Below, piece after piece: positions 7,891 through 28,691 of a stretch of 64,000 bases of DNA. Each line of letters opens with the position of its first letter. Position 1 is the first letter of the stretch. Where the stretch lies: positions 8,831 through 72,830 of the forward strand of contig PFWT01000006.1 in the NCBI GenBank assembly GCA_002791275.1. Direction: 5' to 3'. Made by a program: the position numbers and the translations under genes. The DNA comes from Candidatus Uhrbacteria bacterium CG_4_9_14_3_um_filter_41_35. Lineage in GTDB: Bacteria > Patescibacteriota > Patescibacteriia > UBA9934. A model generated the notes under the pieces. The model searched no databases. It saw only the letters and a list, made by a program, of their open reading frames with translations, and was not told the origin of the DNA.

Positions 7891-9201
7891 TTATTTTCGC
7901 TCACCAGATCTAGCGAGTAGCGCCAGAACAAAGACCGCTAAAGTCTGCCCGCTCCAGCTCGTCCAAATGTAGTGATCAAAAAATGTGATCGTTAAAATTA
8001 AACTAGCCGTCATAAAAGCAAAGACCGCATCGATGTGTGAGAAACGTTTAAAATTAATTAGCGTAGCAGTGATAACAAGAGCGATTAGAATAAACAGACC
8101 GAGAATGCCGATCTCACCAACCACCAGCAATGGCACATTGTGGACTGGCTGATATTCAAACCACTGTCTATTAGGGAAAGCTTCGTGAATAGCCAAAGTG
8201 TAATTACCGAGCCCATAGCCAAGCAACCAGCTAGAACCGATCACCTCTGGGAAATCTCTGTACTGATCGAGTCGTTCGCTTATAGCGTGTGATTCAACCG
8301 GGCTGACACCGGAGAATCTTGAAAGTATAGCTGAGCTAAATAGCGTAATAAGTAGTGCTAAAACCACCATAAAACCCACAGCCGGTCCCACCAAGCGCTT
8401 GGCGTAACTTGGTCGCTTCACCAAAAATATGACAGTGCCAAGCACCACACCAACCGCCAGCCCAGCAAACGCAGACCTTGAAAAAGTCAGGATTAGGCCA
8501 AGTGACAGTAGAACACCAATTAAACTAAAAACTATTTGTTCAGAGTTTTTCTTTACTGACTGTAAAGTTGAGAAAATAGCAACAAGGCCAACTGCCAAAT
8601 ATCCGCCAAAAATATTTGGGTGTGAAAAACTACCGTAAGCTCTTAAAACTCGAGTATTACCAATAAGTAGAACTGCATCGCCGAGCCTTTCAGATGATCT
8701 TGATGCTAAACCTAAATAAGTTGAAGCAAACGACGCTCCATTAAAAAATTGAAAAACTCCTAACATCACCGGTAGCACTAAACCGAAAATAAAAGCTTTT
8801 AATAAAAATTTGAGCTGAACCCTTTTGTCGAGCAAAAGCAAAAATAGAACAAAAGAAAATATCAACTGAACCAAACTTGTGGAAGCTAGCGTTTTATTGA
8901 TTGAAAAAAATAAAGAAAAAATCGTAGCTAACCAAACTAAAGCCAGCCCCAGCACCACCAGTTTAGCGTAAACTTTTTTCCATTTCAGATCTAACACCAG
9001 TAACGCTATAAATAAAACCAGCATCTGTGTTACATACAAACTCTGTATTCCGTACTCGTACGGCGAGCCACCAATATTTACCTGACCGAAAATAAATCGT
9101 GTTTGCCAGGGTAAGGAAAAAAAGAAAAGTGCTAAACCGTAATTCAAAATTTGCGTTTTAGAAATGGTCTTCATTCGCCTGGCAATTTTCGAAAAATTCA
9201 T
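7891..9201 (-). CDS. Polytopic membrane protein, O-antigen ligase/polymerase (Wzy_C)-like
   Basis: 436 aa with at least 10 predicted TM helices and a large periplasmic-type loop. Architecture resembles WaaL/Wzy. No motif-level confirmation. Confidence 0.45.
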   Translation of the reverse strand: MNFSKIARRMKTISKTQILNYGLALFFFSLPWQTRFIFGQVNIGGSPYEYGIQSLYVTQMLVLFIALLVLDLKWKKVYAKLVVLGLALVWLATIFSLFFSINKTLASTSLVQLIFSFVLFLLLLDKRVQLKFLLKAFIFGLVLPVMLGVFQFFNGASFASTYLGLASRSSERLGDAVLLIGNTRVLRAYGSFSHPNIFGGYLAVGLVAIFSTLQSVKKNSEQIVFSLIGVLLSLGLILTFSRSAFAGLAVGVVLGTVIFLVKRPSYAKRLVGPAVGFMVVLALLITLFSSAILSRFSGVSPVESHAISERLDQYRDFPEVIGSSWLLGYGLGNYTLAIHEAFPNRQWFEYQPVHNVPLLVVGEIGILGLFILIALVITATLINFKRFSHIDAVFAFMTASLILTITFFDHYIWTSWSGQTLAVFVLALLARSGERK

Positions 9202-18697: not shown

Positions 18698-21600
18698 TTA
18701 TAGATTTTTAGCCGAAATATCGAAGAATCGTTCAAAGAAACTTGTTAGCTTATTTAAAACATTTTCTCGTTTTTTGCCATAACCGCCATCAGGAGAAAAA
18801 CGAGATGGGCGATTTATCATTATTTTACTAATTACAGTACCGGTTGTCGCTACATTTCCGTCTCTAAAAGCATTATTTATGAATTTGTAGGTAGCTTCTG
18901 GGTCAAGGTTTTCATTTTCAATTATTTTGTTGAGTTCTTCAATTTTCTTTTCTTCTACAAATTTTTGCCAATCTTCATCAATGATTGAATGAACATCAAG
19001 AGAAGTAATAAATTTATTGATAAGATCTTTTTTATTTCGGAGTTCAACACTAGAATCAATGGCTTTATTAATATCAACTAAAAGCTCTTTGTTTTTAGTA
19101 TGATCTTCATGATAGTGCTTAATAAGACCTAGAACATAATCAATATTAATTTCTACTTGTTTAATAAGCTCCATTTCAAAGACCACATCGTCATTAACAT
19201 TTTCTTTTTCTCCCTCTTCACCTTTACGAAATTCATTATATAAATCAATGTACATGCTATGGTAATCTTGCACATCACGCTCAGTCAAAATTTCATTTCC
19301 TGCAAATTCATCAAAAGTTGTAAGGATGTTTCGGACACGCAAAACCGCTCCGTATGATCTAATAAAATCTGTTTGAATCTGCTCTCCTACAATCCTTTCT
19401 CCTACCGGGAAATTTTCCAAAAGCTCATCAATCAAACTTTTGTATCCTCGGACTTCTTTATCGTCGTCTTTATAACCATTGTAATAGTCATTATAAGCTT
19501 TAAGAAGAACAATCCCACTGGCTTCCTTATCTCCAAAAAGTGCAATAGATTCGTTTGTCGCTTTTTCTAAATTGCGAAAACAAACAATATTTCCAAAGGT
19601 TTTTACACTATTCAAAATACGATTAGTTCTAGAAAATGCTTGAAGTAAACCATGCAAACGCAAGTTTTTATCTACCCAAATGGTATTCAGAGTTGTAGCA
19701 TCAAATCCAGTCAAAAACATGTTTACTACAATCAGAATATCAATTTCTCTATTTTTAACTCGCTCACTAACATCTTTGTAATAGTTTTGAAATTTATCTG
19801 ACGAAGTATCATAAGAAGTGCCAAACATTTTATTGTAATCACTAATGGCATTTTCAAGAAAATCTCGAGAACTAATATCAAGTCCGCTTGTATCTTCAGA
19901 ATTTTCATCAATCATTCCGTCCGCGTCTTCATCATTTACTCCAAAACTAAAAATTGTTGCTATTTTAAGTCGTTTATCGCTAGGTTCGTCGGCTAATTGT
20001 TTTTTAAATTCAAGATAATACTTTTTTGCCACATCAATAGAAGAAACGGCGAAAATTGAATTAAAGCCCGCTAGTCTGCGATCCTGTATTTTATAAAAAC
20101 TATTTCGTTTGGTTTTTTGGTCAAAGTGTTCCCGAATATATTTCACAATGTTTTCCAGTCGCTCCGGTGCTGAAAGAACAGCCTCGCGATCAATATCACG
20201 AACTTGAGCGTCTTCAATATTTTCCGCTTCATGAACGGTTGAAACATAATCAACTTTAAACGGTAAAACATTTTTGTCAGCAATAGCGTTAACAATTGTA
20301 TAGGTGTGAAGTTTCTCGCCAAAAGCCTGCTCGGTAGTTTTAAAATCAAGCCGACCACCAGATGAAGAATTTACAGCAAAAATAGGCGTGCCAGTAAAAC
20401 CAAATAAATGATATTTACTAAATGCTTTTACAATACTTGCATGCATATCGCCAAATTGCGAACGATGACATTCATCAAAAATTAAAACAATATGACCGTC
20501 AAAAATAGTATGATTTTTATTTTTACTTATAAATCTATCTAATTTTTGAATTGTGGTAACGATTATTCGAGAGTTTGAATCTTCTAACTGTTTTTTTAAT
20601 TTAGCTGTACTCGTATTACTGTTCGCCGCCCCTTTTTCAAATTTATCGTATTCTCGCATTGTTTGATAATCCAAGTCTTTACGATCAACTACAAACAATA
20701 CTTTGTCTATATACGGCAATTTACTAGCCAACTGAGCAGTCTTAAAACTTGTCAAAGTTTTTCCCGATCCGGTTGTATGCCAAACATAACCGCCAGCCTC
20801 AACTGTTCCGAGTTTTTTATAATTTGTACTAACCTCAACCCTGTTCAATATTCGTTCGGTCGCAACAATTTGATATGGCCTCATTACCAAAAGTTGCTTT
20901 TCGGTAGTAAATACGCAATATTTAGTTAGAATATTTAAAATCGTATGCTTAGCAAAAAATGTTTTGGCAAAATCCATTAAATCAGTAATCGGCCGATTGG
21001 TTGCGTCTGCCCACCAGCTCGTAAATTCAAAACTATTGCTCGATTTTTTTCCTTTTTTAATTTTACCCTCGCTTGATTCTTTTATGTGTTGAAATCTGGT
21101 TGTATTGCTGTAATATTTTGTATGAGTTCCGTTTGAGATGATAAATAACTGCACATATTCAAAAAGTCCGCTGGAAGCCCAAAAACTTTCTCGTTGATAA
21201 CGATTAATTTGATTAAATGCTTCGGAAATAGCAACTCCACGGCGTTTTAACTCAATATGAATAAGAGGTAGTCCATTCACAAGTACCGTCACATCATAAC
21301 GATTAGCCCGCTGTCCGTCTTCGGTCGTATATTGATTAATTACTTGCAGGCTATTATTATGGACATTTTTCTTATCTATCAAGTCTATATTTTTAAAAGT
21401 TCCGTCATCTCGGTCTAATATTTTCGTGCTGTCTTCTTGAATAGTAGTGGTTTTTTCTTCAATACTCTGATTTGGATTAGCGATAACACTCACAAAAAAC
21501 TTTTCCCATTCAGTATCTGAAAAAGTAAAATTATTTAATTTTTCCAGCTGCTGACGCAAGTTTAACACCAATTCATTTTCTGAAGTGATATTCAAATATT

Positions 21601-21754
21601 CATACGCTTGAGTTTCCAGTTGCTTAATAAAAGCACGCTCAAGCTCGGCCTCACTTTGGTAGTGAGCCACTCTTTTTTCATCAGACACATACTCGGAAAC
21701 AACCGTGCTTTGTGTGCTTTCAGCGACTAAATTGTATTTGTTCTTATTTGGCAT
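18698..21754 (-). CDS. hsdR: Type I restriction enzyme R subunit (HsdR), type IC (EcoR124I-like)
   Basis: 1018 aa with DEAD-box helicase motifs (GSGKTLTSFK; FVVDRKDLDYQT; DECHRSQFG) and the PD-(D/E)xK nuclease region (NRYDVTVLVNGLPLIHIELKRRG). Long colinear identity to EcoR124I HsdR as recalled from memory. 11-bp overlap with hsdS. Confidence 0.95.
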   Translation of the reverse strand: MPNKNKYNLVAESTQSTVVSEYVSDEKRVAHYQSEAELERAFIKQLETQAYEYLNITSENELVLNLRQQLEKLNNFTFSDTEWEKFFVSVIANPNQSIEEKTTTIQEDSTKILDRDDGTFKNIDLIDKKNVHNNSLQVINQYTTEDGQRANRYDVTVLVNGLPLIHIELKRRGVAISEAFNQINRYQRESFWASSGLFEYVQLFIISNGTHTKYYSNTTRFQHIKESSEGKIKKGKKSSNSFEFTSWWADATNRPITDLMDFAKTFFAKHTILNILTKYCVFTTEKQLLVMRPYQIVATERILNRVEVSTNYKKLGTVEAGGYVWHTTGSGKTLTSFKTAQLASKLPYIDKVLFVVDRKDLDYQTMREYDKFEKGAANSNTSTAKLKKQLEDSNSRIIVTTIQKLDRFISKNKNHTIFDGHIVLIFDECHRSQFGDMHASIVKAFSKYHLFGFTGTPIFAVNSSSGGRLDFKTTEQAFGEKLHTYTIVNAIADKNVLPFKVDYVSTVHEAENIEDAQVRDIDREAVLSAPERLENIVKYIREHFDQKTKRNSFYKIQDRRLAGFNSIFAVSSIDVAKKYYLEFKKQLADEPSDKRLKIATIFSFGVNDEDADGMIDENSEDTSGLDISSRDFLENAISDYNKMFGTSYDTSSDKFQNYYKDVSERVKNREIDILIVVNMFLTGFDATTLNTIWVDKNLRLHGLLQAFSRTNRILNSVKTFGNIVCFRNLEKATNESIALFGDKEASGIVLLKAYNDYYNGYKDDDKEVRGYKSLIDELLENFPVGERIVGEQIQTDFIRSYGAVLRVRNILTTFDEFAGNEILTERDVQDYHSMYIDLYNEFRKGEEGEKENVNDDVVFEMELIKQVEINIDYVLGLIKHYHEDHTKNKELLVDINKAIDSSVELRNKKDLINKFITSLDVHSIIDEDWQKFVEEKKIEELNKIIENENLDPEATYKFINNAFRDGNVATTGTVISKIMINRPSRFSPDGGYGKKRENVLNKLTSFFERFFDISAKNL

Positions 21755-22865
21755 ATTCTTTTTCTTTGAAAGTTAAAAGTTTCCCGCGGTAATATTCATA
21801 TTGCTGTCTGCGAGCTTTGAGTTCAGCGGGAAGACCGATTGAAATGTCATTTACAAGTGCATCAAATTTGTCGAGGATTGAAACTATTCTTTTTTGTTCG
21901 GTAAGTGGAGGTGTTGGGATTTTTATTTGATTTAAAATTGCCTGAGTTAAACTTGGACGTCCTGATCCTGTATCCAATTTCATTAAATCAACAGTTTTCA
22001 AATAGTGAAATAAAAACTTTGGAATAATTTTTTCTTCGTTTATTTCAGTATAATAAATAGTATCTACATTCCAAAACGGATCCTCTAAATAGTAAAGGTT
22101 TGTAATACTTCCTTTTCTTGGAATTAAAACAGTAGGCTTATCGTAGACCGATTTATTTACATAACCCATAACCCCTCCTGTGCCATAAACAGGAATTTTA
22201 CCATTTCCTAACTTCTTCCAGTCTTTTCCATTCTTAATCTTTGCAACACCTTGTAGTAAATCCCATTTTGAATTCGCATCAAAAGTCAACAACTCATTGC
22301 GATAATGCTCATACTGCTTTTTTCTTGCTTCCAGTTCTGCTTCCAGTTCTGCTTCCAGTTCTGCTTCCAGTTCTGTAAAACTATTAAGAATTTTAACAAT
22401 TTCTTCTTGGATGGCAAGAGGTGGGATGGGGATTAAAGTTTTTTTCAGAAAACTAAAGTGTCTTGTGTATTTACCTGTTTTTGAATAAAAATTATTTAAA
22501 GCATAGTAAAAATATTTTATATTTAATATATTTGAATTTGTTTTTAGAATTTTAATACCGTCCGCCCCTTGAGCAAAAGAAAAATCAATATATTTTAGTG
22601 CCTCAGTGTGGTCTCCGAAAATAACATATAAATCTTTAGCCATAACTGCAGCATTATCATCAGTATAGCCAACAATAAAATCTTGTCCTTGATCTATGAT
22701 AGGAAATTCACCTATTTCCTTGTAGTATTTTTTTGTAAGCTTTTTAGGAGGAGCACAGGTTGTTACGATTTTATTTATAAGCAAATTATCAATATCAAAA
22801 AACTCCACACCTGCTGGGCATAGTTCTGAGATTAGTTTTTCGATTTTTGGTTGGTTGGTTGTCAT
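21744..22865 (-). CDS. hsdS: Type I restriction-modification specificity subunit (HsdS), type IC-like with (ELEA)4 central repeat
   Basis: Two target-recognition halves, each ending in a conserved coiled-coil (ELEARKKQYEHYRNELLTF and ELKARRQQYEYYRGKLLTF). A central tandem 4-aa repeat TELEAELEAELEAELEA is encoded by a 12-bp DNA repeat. 373 aa. Confidence 0.85.
   Translation of the reverse strand: MTTNQPKIEKLISELCPAGVEFFDIDNLLINKIVTTCAPPKKLTKKYYKEIGEFPIIDQGQDFIVGYTDDNAAVMAKDLYVIFGDHTEALKYIDFSFAQGADGIKILKTNSNILNIKYFYYALNNFYSKTGKYTRHFSFLKKTLIPIPPLAIQEEIVKILNSFTELEAELEAELEAELEARKKQYEHYRNELLTFDANSKWDLLQGVAKIKNGKDWKKLGNGKIPVYGTGGVMGYVNKSVYDKPTVLIPRKGSITNLYYLEDPFWNVDTIYYTEINEEKIIPKFLFHYLKTVDLMKLDTGSGRPSLTQAILNQIKIPTPPLTEQKRIVSILDKFDALVNDISIGLPAELKARRQQYEYYRGKLLTFKEKEYAK
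22321..22385 (-). repeat. 12-bp tandem repeat (ttccagttctgc)x4 plus a degenerate fifth unit inside hsdS; encodes ELEA repeats in the central spacer-length-determining region
   Basis: Direct reading: cttgc TTCCAGTTCTGC x4 TTCCAGTTCTGT. Confidence 0.9.
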
Positions 22866-24328
22866 ACTAATAATGGAATTAAAGATTCAATGGAAGTTTT
22901 AAGTTCTTCATCTGTAAATTTTGTATTATTTGGATTTTCGGGGTGGTGAATTATATTTCTAATTTTAGTGGGTAAGGTAGTATTGTATTCAATAACGGTT
23001 TTGTCTGACTTTAAATGTTTATACTTTTTGTCTATTTTAATAGCTTCACCACTTTTATTAAAAAGATATTTATCAAAATCTTCTGATTTACAATATTTCT
23101 CGTCTTCTAAAATAGCTTTTGCTTGAATAAAACCATAAAGCTCGTTGTGAAATTCAACAGATAAAACGCCAAACGCATAATAATTAATTTCCCCCCAAGA
23201 AGGACTTGAGGATCCAAACAAATCGAATTCATTGCCAGCTTCAACTTTGTTCATTCCTGAATCTTTTGAGAATATATTCATTGAATGGGTTTCTTTTTTA
23301 TATTTTTTCAATAAATATGGTGAGTGAGTAATTATAAAAATTTGTGACTTGTCGGATATTTTTTCAAGGGCGTCAAGAAGTTTGTTTTGAGCTTGCGGAT
23401 GTAAAAAAGTTTCTGGCTCATCAATAAAAAATAGTATTGGTTTAGAAATTCCGTTTTCATCTGATGAAGAAATATCAGCATACACTTGAATAAGTGCTAA
23501 TGCTAAGGCTCGTTGCATTCCTGTACCTTTTTCAGAACTTTTTGTTTCAATGCCATTTTCAGATAGAGCAATATTCCCCGTTTTGAAAAAACTCTCAATT
23601 TCAGGTAATAAAAAACTAAATCTTACTTCTGTTTCTCCGTACTGTTCAGACAAAATACTTTGTATTTTTTGTTCAACTGGTTGTAGCGTTTTAGCTAAAC
23701 TATTTTCGCCCTCTCCAAAAGTTTCTTTATGAGAATTTTGAAAATTTCTCCAAGTATCAGAAGTAATAAAATCTTTTGTTATCGTATTTATAATTTTTCC
23801 GCTAATTTTTGTTTTTGAAAAATCAGAAATATCACCAGAATTTGTATCAGCCCAAACAAACTGTGCATCAAAAAGTGCCGTAATTGTATTATCTATTCCT
23901 GTAGGATTCTCAAATTGGTTTGCAGTTGGATTAAACACACGAACATTTTTAATATCAAGCTTCTTTTTCTTTCCGTCTTGTGTAATTTCTTTTTCTTCGC
24001 TAGAACGCATTATGCGTAAACTTTTTTCACCATTAGTATCAATGAGGGAAGATTTATATTTTTTTAAGGCATCTATTTCAACAATAGATTCAATATCCTC
24101 ACCTTTGAATTCAATTTCAATAGAAACAAAACTATCTGTTTCAATTTCTGTCTTAGTGATGACTTCACTTCTATCCTTTTTTGAGCGTATAAAGTCAATA
24201 GCTTCAAAAACTGATGATTTGCCACAATTATTGTCACCAACAAAAAAATTCACGCCTTTGTCAAAAAGAATTTCGTGATCACCTTTAAAGCCTTTAAAAT
24301 TATGGAGTTTTATTTTTGATATATACAT
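22862..24328 (-). CDS. ABC-type ATPase fused to a C-terminal HEPN-like (Rx4H) domain; PrrC/RloC-like putative anticodon nuclease / restriction-linked abortive-infection protein
   Basis: Walker A FVGDNNCGKSS, ABC-signature-like SEKGTGMQRA, Walker B PILFFIDEPETFLH and H-loop IITHSP. The ~145-aa C-terminal domain carries KIRNIIHHPENPN (R-x4-H). 4-bp overlap with the hsdS start. 488 aa. Confidence 0.55.
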   Translation of the reverse strand: MYISKIKLHNFKGFKGDHEILFDKGVNFFVGDNNCGKSSVFEAIDFIRSKKDRSEVITKTEIETDSFVSIEIEFKGEDIESIVEIDALKKYKSSLIDTNGEKSLRIMRSSEEKEITQDGKKKKLDIKNVRVFNPTANQFENPTGIDNTITALFDAQFVWADTNSGDISDFSKTKISGKIINTITKDFITSDTWRNFQNSHKETFGEGENSLAKTLQPVEQKIQSILSEQYGETEVRFSFLLPEIESFFKTGNIALSENGIETKSSEKGTGMQRALALALIQVYADISSSDENGISKPILFFIDEPETFLHPQAQNKLLDALEKISDKSQIFIITHSPYLLKKYKKETHSMNIFSKDSGMNKVEAGNEFDLFGSSSPSWGEINYYAFGVLSVEFHNELYGFIQAKAILEDEKYCKSEDFDKYLFNKSGEAIKIDKKYKHLKSDKTVIEYNTTLPTKIRNIIHHPENPNNTKFTDEELKTSIESLIPLLV

Positions 24329-24337
24329 AATTTTTAA

Positions 24338-24420
24338 TGATTTTTTTCAATATCCGCCATAATCTCATCAATCGCCGTCCTAAGCTCATTTTGCCCCACT
24401 GCAATTTTTAATTTCGCGTT
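24338..24420 (-). pseudogene. 3'-terminal remnant of an hsdM gene (encodes ...KIAVGQNELRTAIDEIMADIEKNH*); there is no start codon, and a stop lies a few codons upstream
   Basis: Nucleotide and peptide similarity to the 3' end of the intact hsdM at 25487.. (IVARQNELRNAIDEIVVDIEGTN*). It has the same spacing to the downstream gene start as hsdM has to dinD. Confidence 0.65.
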
Positions 24421-24628
24421 TGTTATATTATATTTCAGCCATTTTACAAGCTAACTGAATCTCTTCATCTTGGCTTTCTAACCACAGATCAACGTCTAAC
24501 TTATGTTCAGTTTTATTTTGGCTAATCATCTCCAATACAGGTTTTTTGTATTTAGATCAATAAATTTGGCACCATTATTGTCCTCAAAGAATTTTAATAC
24601 GTTTTCTACATTTATTGGATTTTTCATA

Positions 24629-25477
24629 TTATCCTTCATTATCCTTTAAAAATTTTTTATCATCATTCCCAAGATAGTTTTTCTCACTAATTACACTTCT
24701 ACCAAGCTCTTTTTCAGTTTCCTTCCTCGCGTTGCCTGCCACCTTACCACCTCTTTTGGCTACTCTTTTACTTTCAGTAATTCCTTTTGGTTTTTCTTGA
24801 CTCGATATTTCCGTGGTAACTTTTTCGCCAAGCATTGTAAAAATAAGCTCGAGATCCGTCATATTGTCTCTAAGATTTGCCTTAGATTTATCGGGAATAT
24901 TTTTGAGCTTCATATATTCGCTCGGCGTCATTCCAAAAGTCGCTTTGCTGATTTCTGCGGTCAAAATAGCATAGTCTCTTTGCTCTGTGATTCCTCTCTG
25001 TTTCCATTCATCCGTTAAATTTTGACGGATAGCAATTCCACGAAGTCTTTTGTCTATCCAATCTTGAGGATAGCCCTTTGCTTCATAGAGCTTTTTCATT
25101 CTTTCTTGGGCCAGTTCTGGATTTTCTATTTCCTCGATTCTTTCATAACCCACTTTGGCAAGCCACCTTTTGAAAGGTTCAGCTTTTGGAGAAGGGATGG
25201 ACTGGATAATTCTTAAAATCCCTTCAGTATTTGCACAATCTGTTTCTCTCATTTTTCCGTCTGGTGCAAGGAGTTTCAACCCGTGACAAAATGTCACGAC
25301 TTCACTTCCTTCTTCATTAAGTCTCTGTTTTAATTTTCTCCAATAAGCTCCCGCATCAGGACTTTCTGTAAGAGCAAAACATATATCAACGACCGAAAAA
25401 TACCATTCTTCATTATGCCAAATTTTACGAATTTGTTTTTTTTCAAACAGTGCGATTTTGTTGTGAGTATTTGCCAT
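24629..25477 (-). CDS. DinD-like / Bro-N domain protein (DNA-damage-inducible protein D family)
   Basis: N-terminal Bro-N-like segment (KIALFEKKQIRKIWHNEEWYFSVVDICFAL). The C-terminal region (KSKANLRDNMTDLELIFTMLGEKVTTEI; basic tail KRVAKRGGKVAGNARKE) resembles E. coli DinD as recalled from memory. 282 aa, 9 bp downstream of hsdM. Confidence 0.6.
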   Translation of the reverse strand: MANTHNKIALFEKKQIRKIWHNEEWYFSVVDICFALTESPDAGAYWRKLKQRLNEEGSEVVTFCHGLKLLAPDGKMRETDCANTEGILRIIQSIPSPKAEPFKRWLAKVGYERIEEIENPELAQERMKKLYEAKGYPQDWIDKRLRGIAIRQNLTDEWKQRGITEQRDYAILTAEISKATFGMTPSEYMKLKNIPDKSKANLRDNMTDLELIFTMLGEKVTTEISSQEKPKGITESKRVAKRGGKVAGNARKETEKELGRSVISEKNYLGNDDKKFLKDNEG

Positions 25478-25486
25478 ATTACTATT

Positions 25487-27064
25487 TTAGTTAGTTCCTT
25501 CAATATCCACCACAATCTCATCAATCGCATTTCGAAGCTCATTTTGCCTTGCGACAATTTGGGAAATTTTACTGTTAAGTTCTTTTATATCAATTATTTC
25601 GCGAGTATCTTCTGCTACTACATAACTTGATACTGCAATATTATAATCATTTTCGCTAATAGTTTTATTATCCACCAGTTTTGCAAAATACTCTGTGTCT
25701 TTACGCTCAATAAACGCATTAAGAATTTTTTTGCGATTTTCTTCACTTAATTTGTTTTTATTTCCACCTCGCACAAATTCTTTAGAAGCGTCTATAAACA
25801 AAGTCTTATTATCTTTTTTACTTTTTTTCAATATAACAACACAGGTTGCGATAGTTGTTCCGAAAAAGAGATCGGGCGGTAATTGTATAACTGAATCTAT
25901 GTAGTTATTATCAATCAAATATTTACGGATTTTTTGTTCAGCTCCACCACGATAAAGAACCCCCGGAAATTCAACAATTGCCGCGGTTCCGCTGGTTGAG
26001 AGCCAAGAAAGCATGTGCATGGTAAACGCTAGATCTGCCTTGCTTTTTGGTGCCAAAACTCCTGCGGGAGAAAAACGAGGATCATTTATTATTAAAGGAT
26101 TGGCATCGCCGTCCCACTTGATTGAATATGGCGGATTGGAAACAATGGCGTCAAAAGGTTCATCGTCCCAGTGTTTTGGATCAGTAAGAGTATCACCATG
26201 GGCAATATCAAAATTGTTATAATTGATATCATGCAAAAACATGTTTATACGGCAGAGGTTGTAGGTAGTGAGGTTTATTTCCTGTCCGTAGAAACCAAGA
26301 CGAACATTGTCTTTACCGAGCACTTTTGCAAATTTAAGAAGAAGTGAACCGGAACCGCAACAAGGATCATAAACTTTATTTACTTCTGTTTTACCAACGG
26401 TTGTAATTTCAGCCAAAAGTTCACTTACTTCTTGAGGGGTAAAAAATTCTCCTCCAGATTTACCAGCATTTGAAGCATACATGGTCATCAAAAATTCATA
26501 AGCATCACCGAAAGCGTCAATTGTGTTATCTCCATAATCACCCAAGCGAAGATCACCGATAGCTTCTAACAGTTTTACAAGTTTTTGATTTCTTTTCTCA
26601 ACTGTTCCGCCTAGCTTATTTGAGTTCACATCCAAGTCATCAAACAATCCTTTAAGATCGTCTTCGCTATCAAATCCTTTGGCAGAATTTTCGATATTAT
26701 CAAAAACCTTAGAAAGTGTTTCGTTAAGCTTTGCATCGCTACGGGCATTTTTATGAACATTTATAAAAAGTTCGCTCGGCAGAATATAAAAACCTTTATT
26801 AATTATTGTTTCTATTCTACCAAATTCCGCTTCTTTATCACTCAACTTAATATAATCAAATTGTTCTTGTCCGAAAACTCGCCTTTCATCTTCATTGATA
26901 AAGTTAGTTAGATTTTCGCTAATGAAACGATAAAAAAGCATTCCAAGAACATACTGTTTAAAATCCCAGCCGTCGACACTTCCTCGCAAGTCATTCGCAA
27001 TTTGCCAAATAGCACGATGTAACTCCGAGCGTTCTTGCTCTTTTGTTGTATTTAAATTTGTCAT
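25487..27064 (-). CDS. hsdM: Type I restriction-modification N6-adenine DNA methyltransferase (HsdM), type IC (EcoR124I-like)
   Basis: Motif I DPCCGSGSLLL and motif IV VSNPPYSIKW. N- and C-terminal regions colinear with EcoR124I HsdM (recalled). 525 aa. Confidence 0.95.
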   Translation of the reverse strand: MTNLNTTKEQERSELHRAIWQIANDLRGSVDGWDFKQYVLGMLFYRFISENLTNFINEDERRVFGQEQFDYIKLSDKEAEFGRIETIINKGFYILPSELFINVHKNARSDAKLNETLSKVFDNIENSAKGFDSEDDLKGLFDDLDVNSNKLGGTVEKRNQKLVKLLEAIGDLRLGDYGDNTIDAFGDAYEFLMTMYASNAGKSGGEFFTPQEVSELLAEITTVGKTEVNKVYDPCCGSGSLLLKFAKVLGKDNVRLGFYGQEINLTTYNLCRINMFLHDINYNNFDIAHGDTLTDPKHWDDEPFDAIVSNPPYSIKWDGDANPLIINDPRFSPAGVLAPKSKADLAFTMHMLSWLSTSGTAAIVEFPGVLYRGGAEQKIRKYLIDNNYIDSVIQLPPDLFFGTTIATCVVILKKSKKDNKTLFIDASKEFVRGGNKNKLSEENRKKILNAFIERKDTEYFAKLVDNKTISENDYNIAVSSYVVAEDTREIIDIKELNSKISQIVARQNELRNAIDEIVVDIEGTN

Positions 27065-27066
27065 AA

Positions 27067-27276
27067 TTATTTAATTAAATCATCTACACCAACACCAAAG
27101 GCATTAGCAATTTTGGTTAGCGTGTCGATAGTAGGATTCTTGTTTGCACCACTCTCAACAGTAACCACGGTATTTAAAGAAAGGTCCGCTAATTTTGAAA
27201 GGCGATCTTGCGAAATACTCTGTTCTACGCGCAATCGTTTAATGTTTTTTCCGATGTTATTTTTAAAATTTTGCAT
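27067..27276 (-). CDS. XRE-family helix-turn-helix transcriptional regulator (69 aa), 3 bp upstream of hsdM
   Basis: HTH_3 pattern IKRLRVEQSISQDRLSKLADLSLNTVVTVESG. Confidence 0.8.
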   Translation of the reverse strand: MQNFKNNIGKNIKRLRVEQSISQDRLSKLADLSLNTVVTVESGANKNPTIDTLTKIANAFGVGVDDLIK

Positions 27277-27385
27277 ACAATATAATGTATAGGTTTTGTT
27301 GAATAATATTACTTTAAATTCCTCCTGTCAAAAAAGTTGTTCCGCCAATAGGTGGAACTCCATATATTATCCTCATCAAAAAAGT

Positions 27386-28436: not shown

Positions 28437-28513
28437 TGGTGGGCGCTGAGGGACTCGAACCCCCGACCCTCTCGGTGTAAACGAGATGCTCTAGCCAGCT
28501 GAGCTAAGCGCCC
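28437..28513 (-). tRNA. tRNA-Val (anticodon TAC), CCA encoded
   Basis: Manual cloverleaf: GGGCGCT-TA-GCTC..GAGC-A-TCTCG-TTTACAC-CGAGA-GGGTC-GGGGG-TTCGAGT-CCCTC-AGCGCCC-A-CCA. Confidence 0.9.
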
Positions 28514-28603: not shown

Positions 28604-28691
28604 GCGCGGGTGGTGGAATTGGTAGACACGCAGGCTTGAGGGGCCTGTGCCTGTAATGGGCGTGGAAGTTCGAGTCTTCTCTCGCGCACCA
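28604..28691 (+). tRNA. tRNA-Leu (anticodon GAG), long variable arm, CCA encoded
   Basis: Manual fold colinear with E. coli tRNA-Leu: GCGCGGG-TG-GTGG-AATTGGTAGACAC-G-CAGGC-TTGAGGG-GCCTG-variable arm-GGAAG-TTCGAGT-CTTCT-CTCGCGC-A-CCA. The ORF 28589..28792(-) overlapping it is spurious. Confidence 0.9.

Follow-up and report, generated by a model that had tools for sequence, protein, structure and literature searches.

An OLD-type ATPase joined to a predicted HEPN domain, encoded inside a type IC restriction-modification operon

PrrC and RloC are tRNases that combine an ABC ATPase with a HEPN domain and are regulated by their NTPase domains, and recent overviews, including bioRxiv 2024.01.29.577857, name only these two as ABC-HEPN systems. 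Anti-restriction proteins trigger PrrC, and they are likewise sensed by AriA of the PARIS system, which then releases a tRNase. For the Old protein of phage P2, an abortive tRNase activity has been reported, with DNA substrates as the trigger. Here we describe a gene, called OLD-HEPN below, in a 64,000-nucleotide stretch of contig PFWT01000006.1 from Candidatus Uhrbacteria bacterium CG_4_9_14_3_um_filter_41_35 (positions 8,831 to 72,830). This whole stretch is referred to as the window, and coordinates given without a locus name are counted from its first nucleotide. The gene occupies 22862–24328 on the minus strand, starts with ATG and encodes 488 amino acids followed by a stop codon.

A preliminary description of the window had picked out this open reading frame, leaving its strand unsaid, and had read the product as a PrrC/RloC-like fusion of an ABC ATPase and a HEPN domain. 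The open reading frame is real and the two-part architecture holds: an ABC-type ATPase is followed by a C-terminal domain with a conserved R-x4-H motif, whose predicted fold and topology fit HEPN. Membership of the PrrC/RloC families does not hold, since the ATPase groups by sequence with the OLD family, the PADLOC PrrC model does not match the C-terminal domain and the R-x3-E spacing is absent. We consider it fairly probable that OLD-HEPN is a single-chain abortive or back-up RNase, composed of an OLD-type ATPase and a HEPN domain, and an analogue of PrrC and PARIS by design. In keeping with the functional proposal made earlier, a restriction-linked back-up RNase remains the best reading in view of the architecture, the R-x4-H motif, the HEPN-like fold and the nesting in a type IC operon, the RNase activity itself being putative.

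The OLD-family ATPase domain

All the motifs quoted in the preliminary description were recovered in the translation. They comprise Walker A (GDNNCGKSS, residues 31–39, 24212–24238), the ABC signature (SEKGTGMQRA, residues 265–274, 23507–23536), Walker B with the D-loop (ILFFIDEPETFLH, residues 298–310, 23399–23437, with Walker B and its catalytic glutamate at residues 298–304), the H-loop (ITHSP, residues 333–337, 23318–23332) and the C-terminal R-x4-H motif (RNIIHH, R457 to H462, 22943–22960), all on the minus strand. To these we add the Q-loop glutamine Q156, so that Walker A, Q-loop, signature, Walker B with catalytic glutamate and H-loop, the elements expected of an ABC ATPase, are all in place. 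In an alignment of 21 full-length homologues (71–90% identical), G36, K37, Q156, the signature, D303, E304 and H335 are invariant. This full conservation, together with that of R457 and H462 in the 58 C-terminal domains described below, argues that the motifs are not chance matches and, to judge from the alignments, are under selection.

OLD-HEPN has 1105 homologues, the best 120 of which are 71–97% identical to it, and the identical protein occurs on 23 contigs. Its nearest relatives come from metagenome-assembled genomes (MAGs) of Patescibacteria, the candidate phyla radiation (CPR), which bears out the CPR-like origin suggested earlier.

The ATPase domain spans residues 1–357 (23258–24328, minus strand). 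In Pfam, residues 1–340 match AAA_15 (4e-33) and AAA_21 (5e-24), two of the families that the preliminary description had named for comparison. The top PADLOC model is Old (2e-51), which covers residues 1–357 only, at positions 2–346 of the 578-position model; AriA, GajA and PtuA follow, and PrrC is absent from the 25 best models of the whole protein. Old is also the best PADLOC model, again over the ATPase only, for the members from E. coli, Klebsiella, Streptococcus and Lactobacillus. By BLASTP, residues 1–376 align to residues 3–374 of phage P2 Old with 26% identity over about 370 amino acids (E=5e-24), and hhalign aligns the family to P2 Old with a probability of 99.5%, the two being colinear, inserts included. 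Pfam AAA_13, the family of the PrrC/RloC-type N-terminal NTPase, gave no match in the protein at E≤0.1. Based on the AAA_15 and AAA_21 matches, the Old model and the colinearity with P2 Old, the N-terminal three quarters of the protein (about 360 residues) is, at the sequence level, an ABC ATPase of the OLD family, not one of the PrrC/RloC type. The length of the protein, 488 against about 396 residues in PrrC, had been taken as a sign of a divergent PrrC; the gap instead reflects a different ATPase lineage.

A transporter-type ABC protein, which had been named as a finding that would overturn the proposal, can be ruled out. The gene has no transmembrane partners and its top matches are non-transporter ATPases of the Rad50, SMC, OLD and PtuA types; in the PDB, sequence matches are to Rad50, PtuA, an OLD-family nuclease and retron ATPases. 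A full-length AlphaFold2 model, built from a shallow alignment, reached a pLDDT (predicted local distance difference test) score of 55 for the ATPase and was left out of fold searching.

The ATPase also raises the question of whether the protein is an ATP-dependent DNA nuclease like the classical OLD enzymes. Database names point this way: NCBI, JGI and UniRef use 'ATP-dependent nuclease' and 'OLD family endonuclease', alongside 'AAA family ATPase' and 'RecF'. However, the Toprim domain, the seat of nuclease activity in OLD enzymes, is absent, as Pfam finds none in OLD-HEPN and Old residues ~390–586 are without a counterpart in the BLASTP alignment. The names derive from the ATPase only, and R-x4-H HEPN sites are metal-independent RNases (PMC3710099). 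A DNase of the classical kind is therefore very improbable. Since the PADLOC Old model matches strongly on the ATPase alone, annotation pipelines will mislabel the effector as a DNase, and the family, although large, is effectively invisible under generic annotation.

The C-terminal HEPN-like domain

The remaining domain, of about 120 residues, covers residues ~368–488 (22865–23227, minus strand). We aligned 58 diverse copies of it, 31–63% identical to that of the window. No column is invariant except R457 and H462, the R-x4-H pair, which answers the check on these two residues proposed in the preliminary description; conservation is at least 90% at H461, P463, E464 and N465, and the residue following the arginine is mostly N, H or D. 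The motif [YF][IV]R[NH]x[IVM]HHPEN recurs throughout the domain family. A glutamate about four residues after the arginine, as in PrrC, had also been anticipated. It is absent: position +4 is H461, and the conserved glutamate, E464, lies at +7.

AlphaFold2 predicts the isolated domain, with the 58-sequence alignment as input, at a pLDDT of 96.7 and a predicted template modelling score (pTM) of 0.89. Numbered locally, it comprises a short helix (14–22), a helix bearing H394 and E396 (27–44), a further helix (51–65), a beta-hairpin (68–87), a helix ending in R457 to H462 (88–97), the P-E-N loop and a last helix (109–123). The predicted domain is thus all-helical with one hairpin, in the order H1, H2, hairpin insert, H3 with R-x4-H at its end, loop and H4. 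HEPN domains are defined by such a helical architecture, with R-x4-6-H where helix 3 ends and a polar residue after the arginine (PMC3710099), and the predicted layout and the motif, with its polar neighbour, agree with both parts of this definition. The helix-1 motif EFHNELYGF (23129–23155, minus strand) carries H394 and E396, each at least 90% conserved, as possible extra active-site residues.

Several results weigh against a HEPN RNase. Pfam gives no match for residues ~365–488, whether the single sequence or the 58 members were searched separately, which also answers in the negative the proposed comparison with HEPN and Abi families. The PDB likewise gives no match, either by single sequence or by profile search, and Foldseek of the domain model against the PDB and the viral BFVD returned noise only. 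By hhalign, a purpose-built DUF86/HepT profile places RN...H in register at a non-significant probability of 0.6%, and an Abi_C protein from a related locus was not matched. H394 and E396 sit in helix 1, whereas the usual HEPN acidic residue is in helix 2. Against the wider reading as a restriction-linked defence, about half of the relatives described in the next section have no recognisable restriction-modification (R-M) neighbour, and no partner, antitoxin or trigger is evident. More generally, PADLOC v2, Pfam and NCBIfam hold no model for the domain; nothing specific was found in NCBIfam, and none of the 58 domains is matched at E≤0.1 by a PADLOC model, that of PrrC included.

Since the profile-profile tests are non-significant, membership of the HEPN fold rests on fold, topology and motif. 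On these grounds the domain very likely belongs to the HEPN fold as modelled, and it is probably a catalytic RNase. It may instead be a non-catalytic HEPN-like or other helical module that binds RNA, DNA or protein or serves in oligomerisation, with the whole protein an ATPase regulator or sensor that acts through another effector, such as HsdR or a nearby toxin. Some HEPN domains are indeed non-catalytic (PMC3710099), the sequence searches found no catalytic HEPN family and Foldseek was negative, and toxin-like neighbours (RhuM, Fic, AbiEii) are common. However, R457 and H462 are the sole invariant residues family-wide, and with the conservation flanking them they form a pattern typical of an active site rather than of an interface; moreover, no candidate partner accompanies the stand-alone copies on plasmids, and the family has no shared neighbour. 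We regard the non-catalytic alternative as unlikely, though it is the more serious competitor to the RNase reading than the DNase discussed above.

Operon context and distribution of the family

In the window, the minus-strand gene order is HTH_3, hsdM, Bro-N/DinD-like, OLD-HEPN, hsdS and hsdR, and this order, together with the EcoR124_C domain of HsdR, bears out the reported nesting inside a type IC hsd operon, between hsdM/DinD-like and hsdS. The reported 4-bp overlap is also correct: the OLD-HEPN stop codon and the hsdS ATG share the sequence ATGA. OLD-HEPN is co-transcribed and translationally coupled with the R-M system; its nesting and the hsdS coupling tie both its expression and its inheritance to those of the restriction enzyme.

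The same arrangement recurs among relatives. In the closest ones, the gene is lodged between hsdM and hsdS as in the window, and 11 of 16 such loci keep the ATGA overlap with hsdS. Type I linkage also occurs in Bacteroidales, Ignavibacteria, Daviesbacteria and an unclassified MAG, with HsdR only 24–41% identical to that of the window, which suggests repeated recruitment. The slot between hsdM and OLD-HEPN varies, being filled by RhuM, Fic or Bro-N, or empty, and RhuM/Fic-type companions were noted in 2013 for PrrC-like loci too (PMC3710099).

These parallels bear on whether OLD-HEPN could be a divergent but true PrrC/RloC anticodon nuclease, held latent by the Hsd complex until a Stp-like peptide frees it to cut tRNA-Lys. 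It occupies the same hsdM-hsdS slot of a type IC operon, shares the design of an ABC protein with a C-terminal R/H domain, and has relatives in which RhuM and Fic share the slot. However, the ATPase matches AAA_15 and AAA_21 rather than AAA_13 and follows P2 Old colinearly, PrrC is missing from the PADLOC matches of the 58 domains and from the 25 best of the whole protein, the R-x3-E spacing is absent, and many members have no type I neighbour, only about a quarter of the species loci being in type I operons. We therefore consider a true PrrC/RloC enzyme highly improbable.

To analyze the distribution of the family, we scanned 1.84 billion representatives of 50% identity clusters at E≤1e-3. 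The C-terminal domain was found in at least 518 clusters; most of the proteins are 460–500 amino acids long with the domain at the C-terminus, and every size variant tested, including longer ones of 536–769 amino acids, still combines AAA_15 with the same C-terminal domain. In a scan of one genome per species, relatives were present in at least 586 species genomes, and the hosts among the matches listed include Patescibacteria, Streptococcus, Corynebacterium, Brevibacterium, Bacteroidales, Campylobacter and Gammaproteobacteria.

An R-M gene lies within four genes of the family member in at least 40 of 79 species loci, a lower bound because the R-M reference set is small. The neighbours are of type I in 20 of these 79 loci (typically with the gene between hsdM and hsdS), type III in 12 (in streptococci directly after Mod-Res), type II in nine (a DpnII cassette, and N6_N4 and EcoRI-type methylases) and type IV in four (GmrSD). 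Other common neighbours are RhuM, Fic, AbiEii, Abi_C, GmrSD and DUF2130. The family is thus enriched in R-M and defence neighbourhoods, and since about half of the relatives lie away from recognisable R-M genes, the coupling is not obligatory. As no neighbour is shared family-wide, a two-gene system can be ruled out and OLD-HEPN is a single-gene module.

Some loci deserve individual mention. In Streptococcus suis, mitis, oralis and pseudopneumoniae (L033, L037, L040–L044, L046 and L048), a 493-residue member directly follows the type III Mod-Res pair and borders the housekeeping tex gene on its other side, as the last gene of the type III R-M island. Two Bacteroidales type I operons (L045, 6279–8417, and L047) have an Abi_C gene before OLD-HEPN and a GmrSD type IV gene after it, giving three embedded defence genes per operon, and Abi_C is another HEPN family. 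Stand-alone copies are found on Lactobacillus helveticus plasmid pLH1 and on a Klebsiella IncFIB plasmid between insertion sequence (IS) elements, with the C-terminal motifs kept. On the E. coli SCU-316 chromosome (L085, 6529–9446), a 482-residue copy with intact C-terminal motifs, WP_233618192.1, annotated as 'ATP-dependent nuclease', directly follows a prophage-type integrase and precedes phage capsid genes, a position typical of prophage-borne defence cargo. Related copies occur in 10 of 5426 complete E. coli genomes, and sequenced phages carry the family rarely.

The low GC content of the window operon (30–37% over 18700–27300, and 29.9% for OLD-HEPN itself, against 40–46% in the flanks) and the nearby tRNA-Val and tRNA-Leu genes (28437–28513 and 28604–28691, about 1.1 kb away) suggest a horizontally acquired island. 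This composition and location, and the copies on plasmids between IS elements, would also suit a mainly selfish module, one for addiction or stabilisation in which losing the R-M island or plasmid is penalised, instead of a gene for defence against phages. However, no cognate antitoxin gene is present and the gene occurs singly in many lineages; in addition, defence and addiction roles can coexist. A mainly selfish module is improbable, less so than the PrrC and DNase alternatives and more so than the non-catalytic one.

The remaining genes of the operon fit a type IC system. hsdR (18698–21754) encodes a protein with an EcoR124_C domain (8e-64), and hsdS (21744–22865), which matches Methylase_S in Pfam, has short tandem amino acid repeats in its central region, the second feature expected of type IC. 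The central conserved region of HsdS contains (ELEA)4, encoded at 22326–22375 by a perfect 12-bp tandem repeat of 4.2 copies, and this is similar to the TAEL repeats of EcoR124I. In EcoR124I-type enzymes, the copy number of these four-residue repeats sets the spacer length of the recognition site, and slippage in the hsdS repeat could likewise drive changes of specificity. hsdM (25487–27064) matches N6_Mtase (3e-116) and HsdM_N. Directly upstream of it, a 69-residue HTH_3 protein of the Cro/C1 type (27067–27276; Pfam 1e-11) heads the operon, as it does upstream of hsdM in two relatives (L003 and L006), and may be an operon controller (C) protein. Ahead of this gene lies the region's best promoter-like site, TTGACA-17-TATTAT (27331–27303, minus strand), which matches at 11 of 12 positions.

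A second embedded gene, Bro-N/DinD-like (24629–25477, 282 amino acids), matches Pfam Bro-N (3e-13) and, over its full length, PDC-S13 (2e-123), a single-gene defence candidate in PADLOC. Directly upstream of the OLD-HEPN start, an hsdM 3' end remnant of about 90 nucleotides (24329–24420, encoding ...NELRTAIDEIMADIEKNH*) aligns to the hsdM 3' ends of both the window and L003, the closest relative, where hsdM stops five nucleotides upstream of the ATPase gene. From the remnant and the L003 arrangement, the Bro-N gene appears to be a later insertion between hsdM and OLD-HEPN, with duplication of the hsdM end. The spacer between the Bro-N gene and the remnant (24420–24628, minus strand, about 200 nucleotides) holds two open reading frames of only about 33 codons and none of 60 amino acids or more. 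All of these genes are on the minus strand.

Proposed function and comparison with known systems

We then propose a mechanistic model for OLD-HEPN as an ATPase-controlled abortive RNase. The OLD-type ATPase would serve as both sensor and switch. A phage-derived cue, for which anti-restriction proteins, failure of R-M function and aberrant DNA ends are candidates, as in PARIS, PrrC and P2 Old, would shift the nucleotide state or the oligomeric arrangement of the ATPase. This change may join two HEPN domains into a composite, metal-independent RNase site, which would cleave tRNA or another cellular RNA, stop translation and abort the infection. In the window, OLD-HEPN would thus act as a second line of defence alongside the type IC enzyme. 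By analogy with the systems named, we infer an RNase activity with its substrate and trigger, a defence phenotype and contact with HsdM/S/R. The conserved hsdS coupling hints at restraint by the Hsd complex, as in PrrC, and the many R-M-free copies indicate that the protein can also work autonomously.

A bolder version is that the family is an independently evolved 'restriction guard', in which the ATPase senses an attack on the adjacent R-M enzyme and the HEPN domain cleaves tRNA. Such a guard would respond to cues such as DNA-mimic or Stp-like anti-restriction proteins, would serve type I, II and III enzymes alike, and would range from CPR bacteria to streptococci and enterobacteria. We hold this possibility only tentatively and think it rather unlikely as a general rule, although it would make PrrC-style guarding a general, convergent layer of R-M immunity and not an E. 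coli curiosity. The recurrence in type I, II and III operons, with members in E. coli, Klebsiella, Streptococcus and Lactobacillus, among them cultured hosts that are tractable in the laboratory (E. coli, Klebsiella and Streptococcus), makes general guarding of R-M systems by back-up RNases testable.

If the abortive RNase model is correct, OLD-HEPN would be a third route to the ABC ATPase-HEPN design, beside PrrC and RloC, reached by a Toprim-to-HEPN swap on an OLD chassis. It would support the view of OLD-type ATPases as interchangeable sensors wired to different suicide nucleases, and it would give CPR/Patescibacteria, whose defence repertoire is sparse, a further component, one of abortive infection. 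The principle of pairing an ABC ATPase with HEPN is already known; for an OLD ATPase with HEPN in place of Toprim, literature searches for a name found only the 'ABC-HEPN' of the 2013 HEPN census (PMC3710099). That census briefly mentions the ERFG_01251 and APECO1_4465 ABC-HEPN families, the nearest literature description to OLD-HEPN, compared here by description only; the APECO1_4465 gene was not found in three 50-kb stretches of the APEC O1 chromosome placed by a guessed gene index.

Among characterized systems, HEC-04 resembles OLD-HEPN in that its ABC ATPase is fused to a nuclease and its gene is found nested within larger defence systems ('guilt by embedding'; bioRxiv 2024.01.29.577857). 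It differs in carrying a Toprim domain, and no HEC model covers the OLD-HEPN C-terminal domain. RloC, like OLD-HEPN, has an ABC ATPase and a HEPN domain, there a tRNase, in one chain and can act without an R-M partner, but the similarity seen here ends at the generic ABC fold. The ATPase of RloC, a much larger protein, is Rad50-like and has a long coiled-coil/zinc-hook.

PrrC of the E. coli EcoprrI type IC system shares with OLD-HEPN an ABC-type NTPase followed by a C-terminal HEPN-class R/H domain, as well as the slot between hsdM and hsdS, where RhuM and Fic are found in relatives. The two differ in ATPase lineage, in length (about 396 against 488 residues) and in the arrangement of the putative active site, which is R...E...H in PrrC and R-x4-H here. 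By comparison with its PADLOC model rather than the PrrC sequence, no similarity to the OLD-HEPN C-terminal domain is detectable, and many OLD-HEPN members are unlinked to type I R-M.

PARIS likewise couples an OLD-type ABC ATPase (AriA models match OLD-HEPN at 1e-24 to 2e-33) to an RNA-cutting effector, but it does so with two genes, AriA and AriB, and a Toprim effector, whereas OLD-HEPN is one polypeptide with a HEPN effector as predicted. P2 Old and the class 1 OLD nucleases share the ATPase, colinear over about 370 residues with its inserts, and the habit of a single-gene module in prophages and plasmids; where they have the Toprim nuclease domain, OLD-HEPN has the HEPN-like domain of about 120 residues. 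OLD-HEPN represents an effector swap on the OLD chassis, and would be functionally convergent with PrrC and PARIS.

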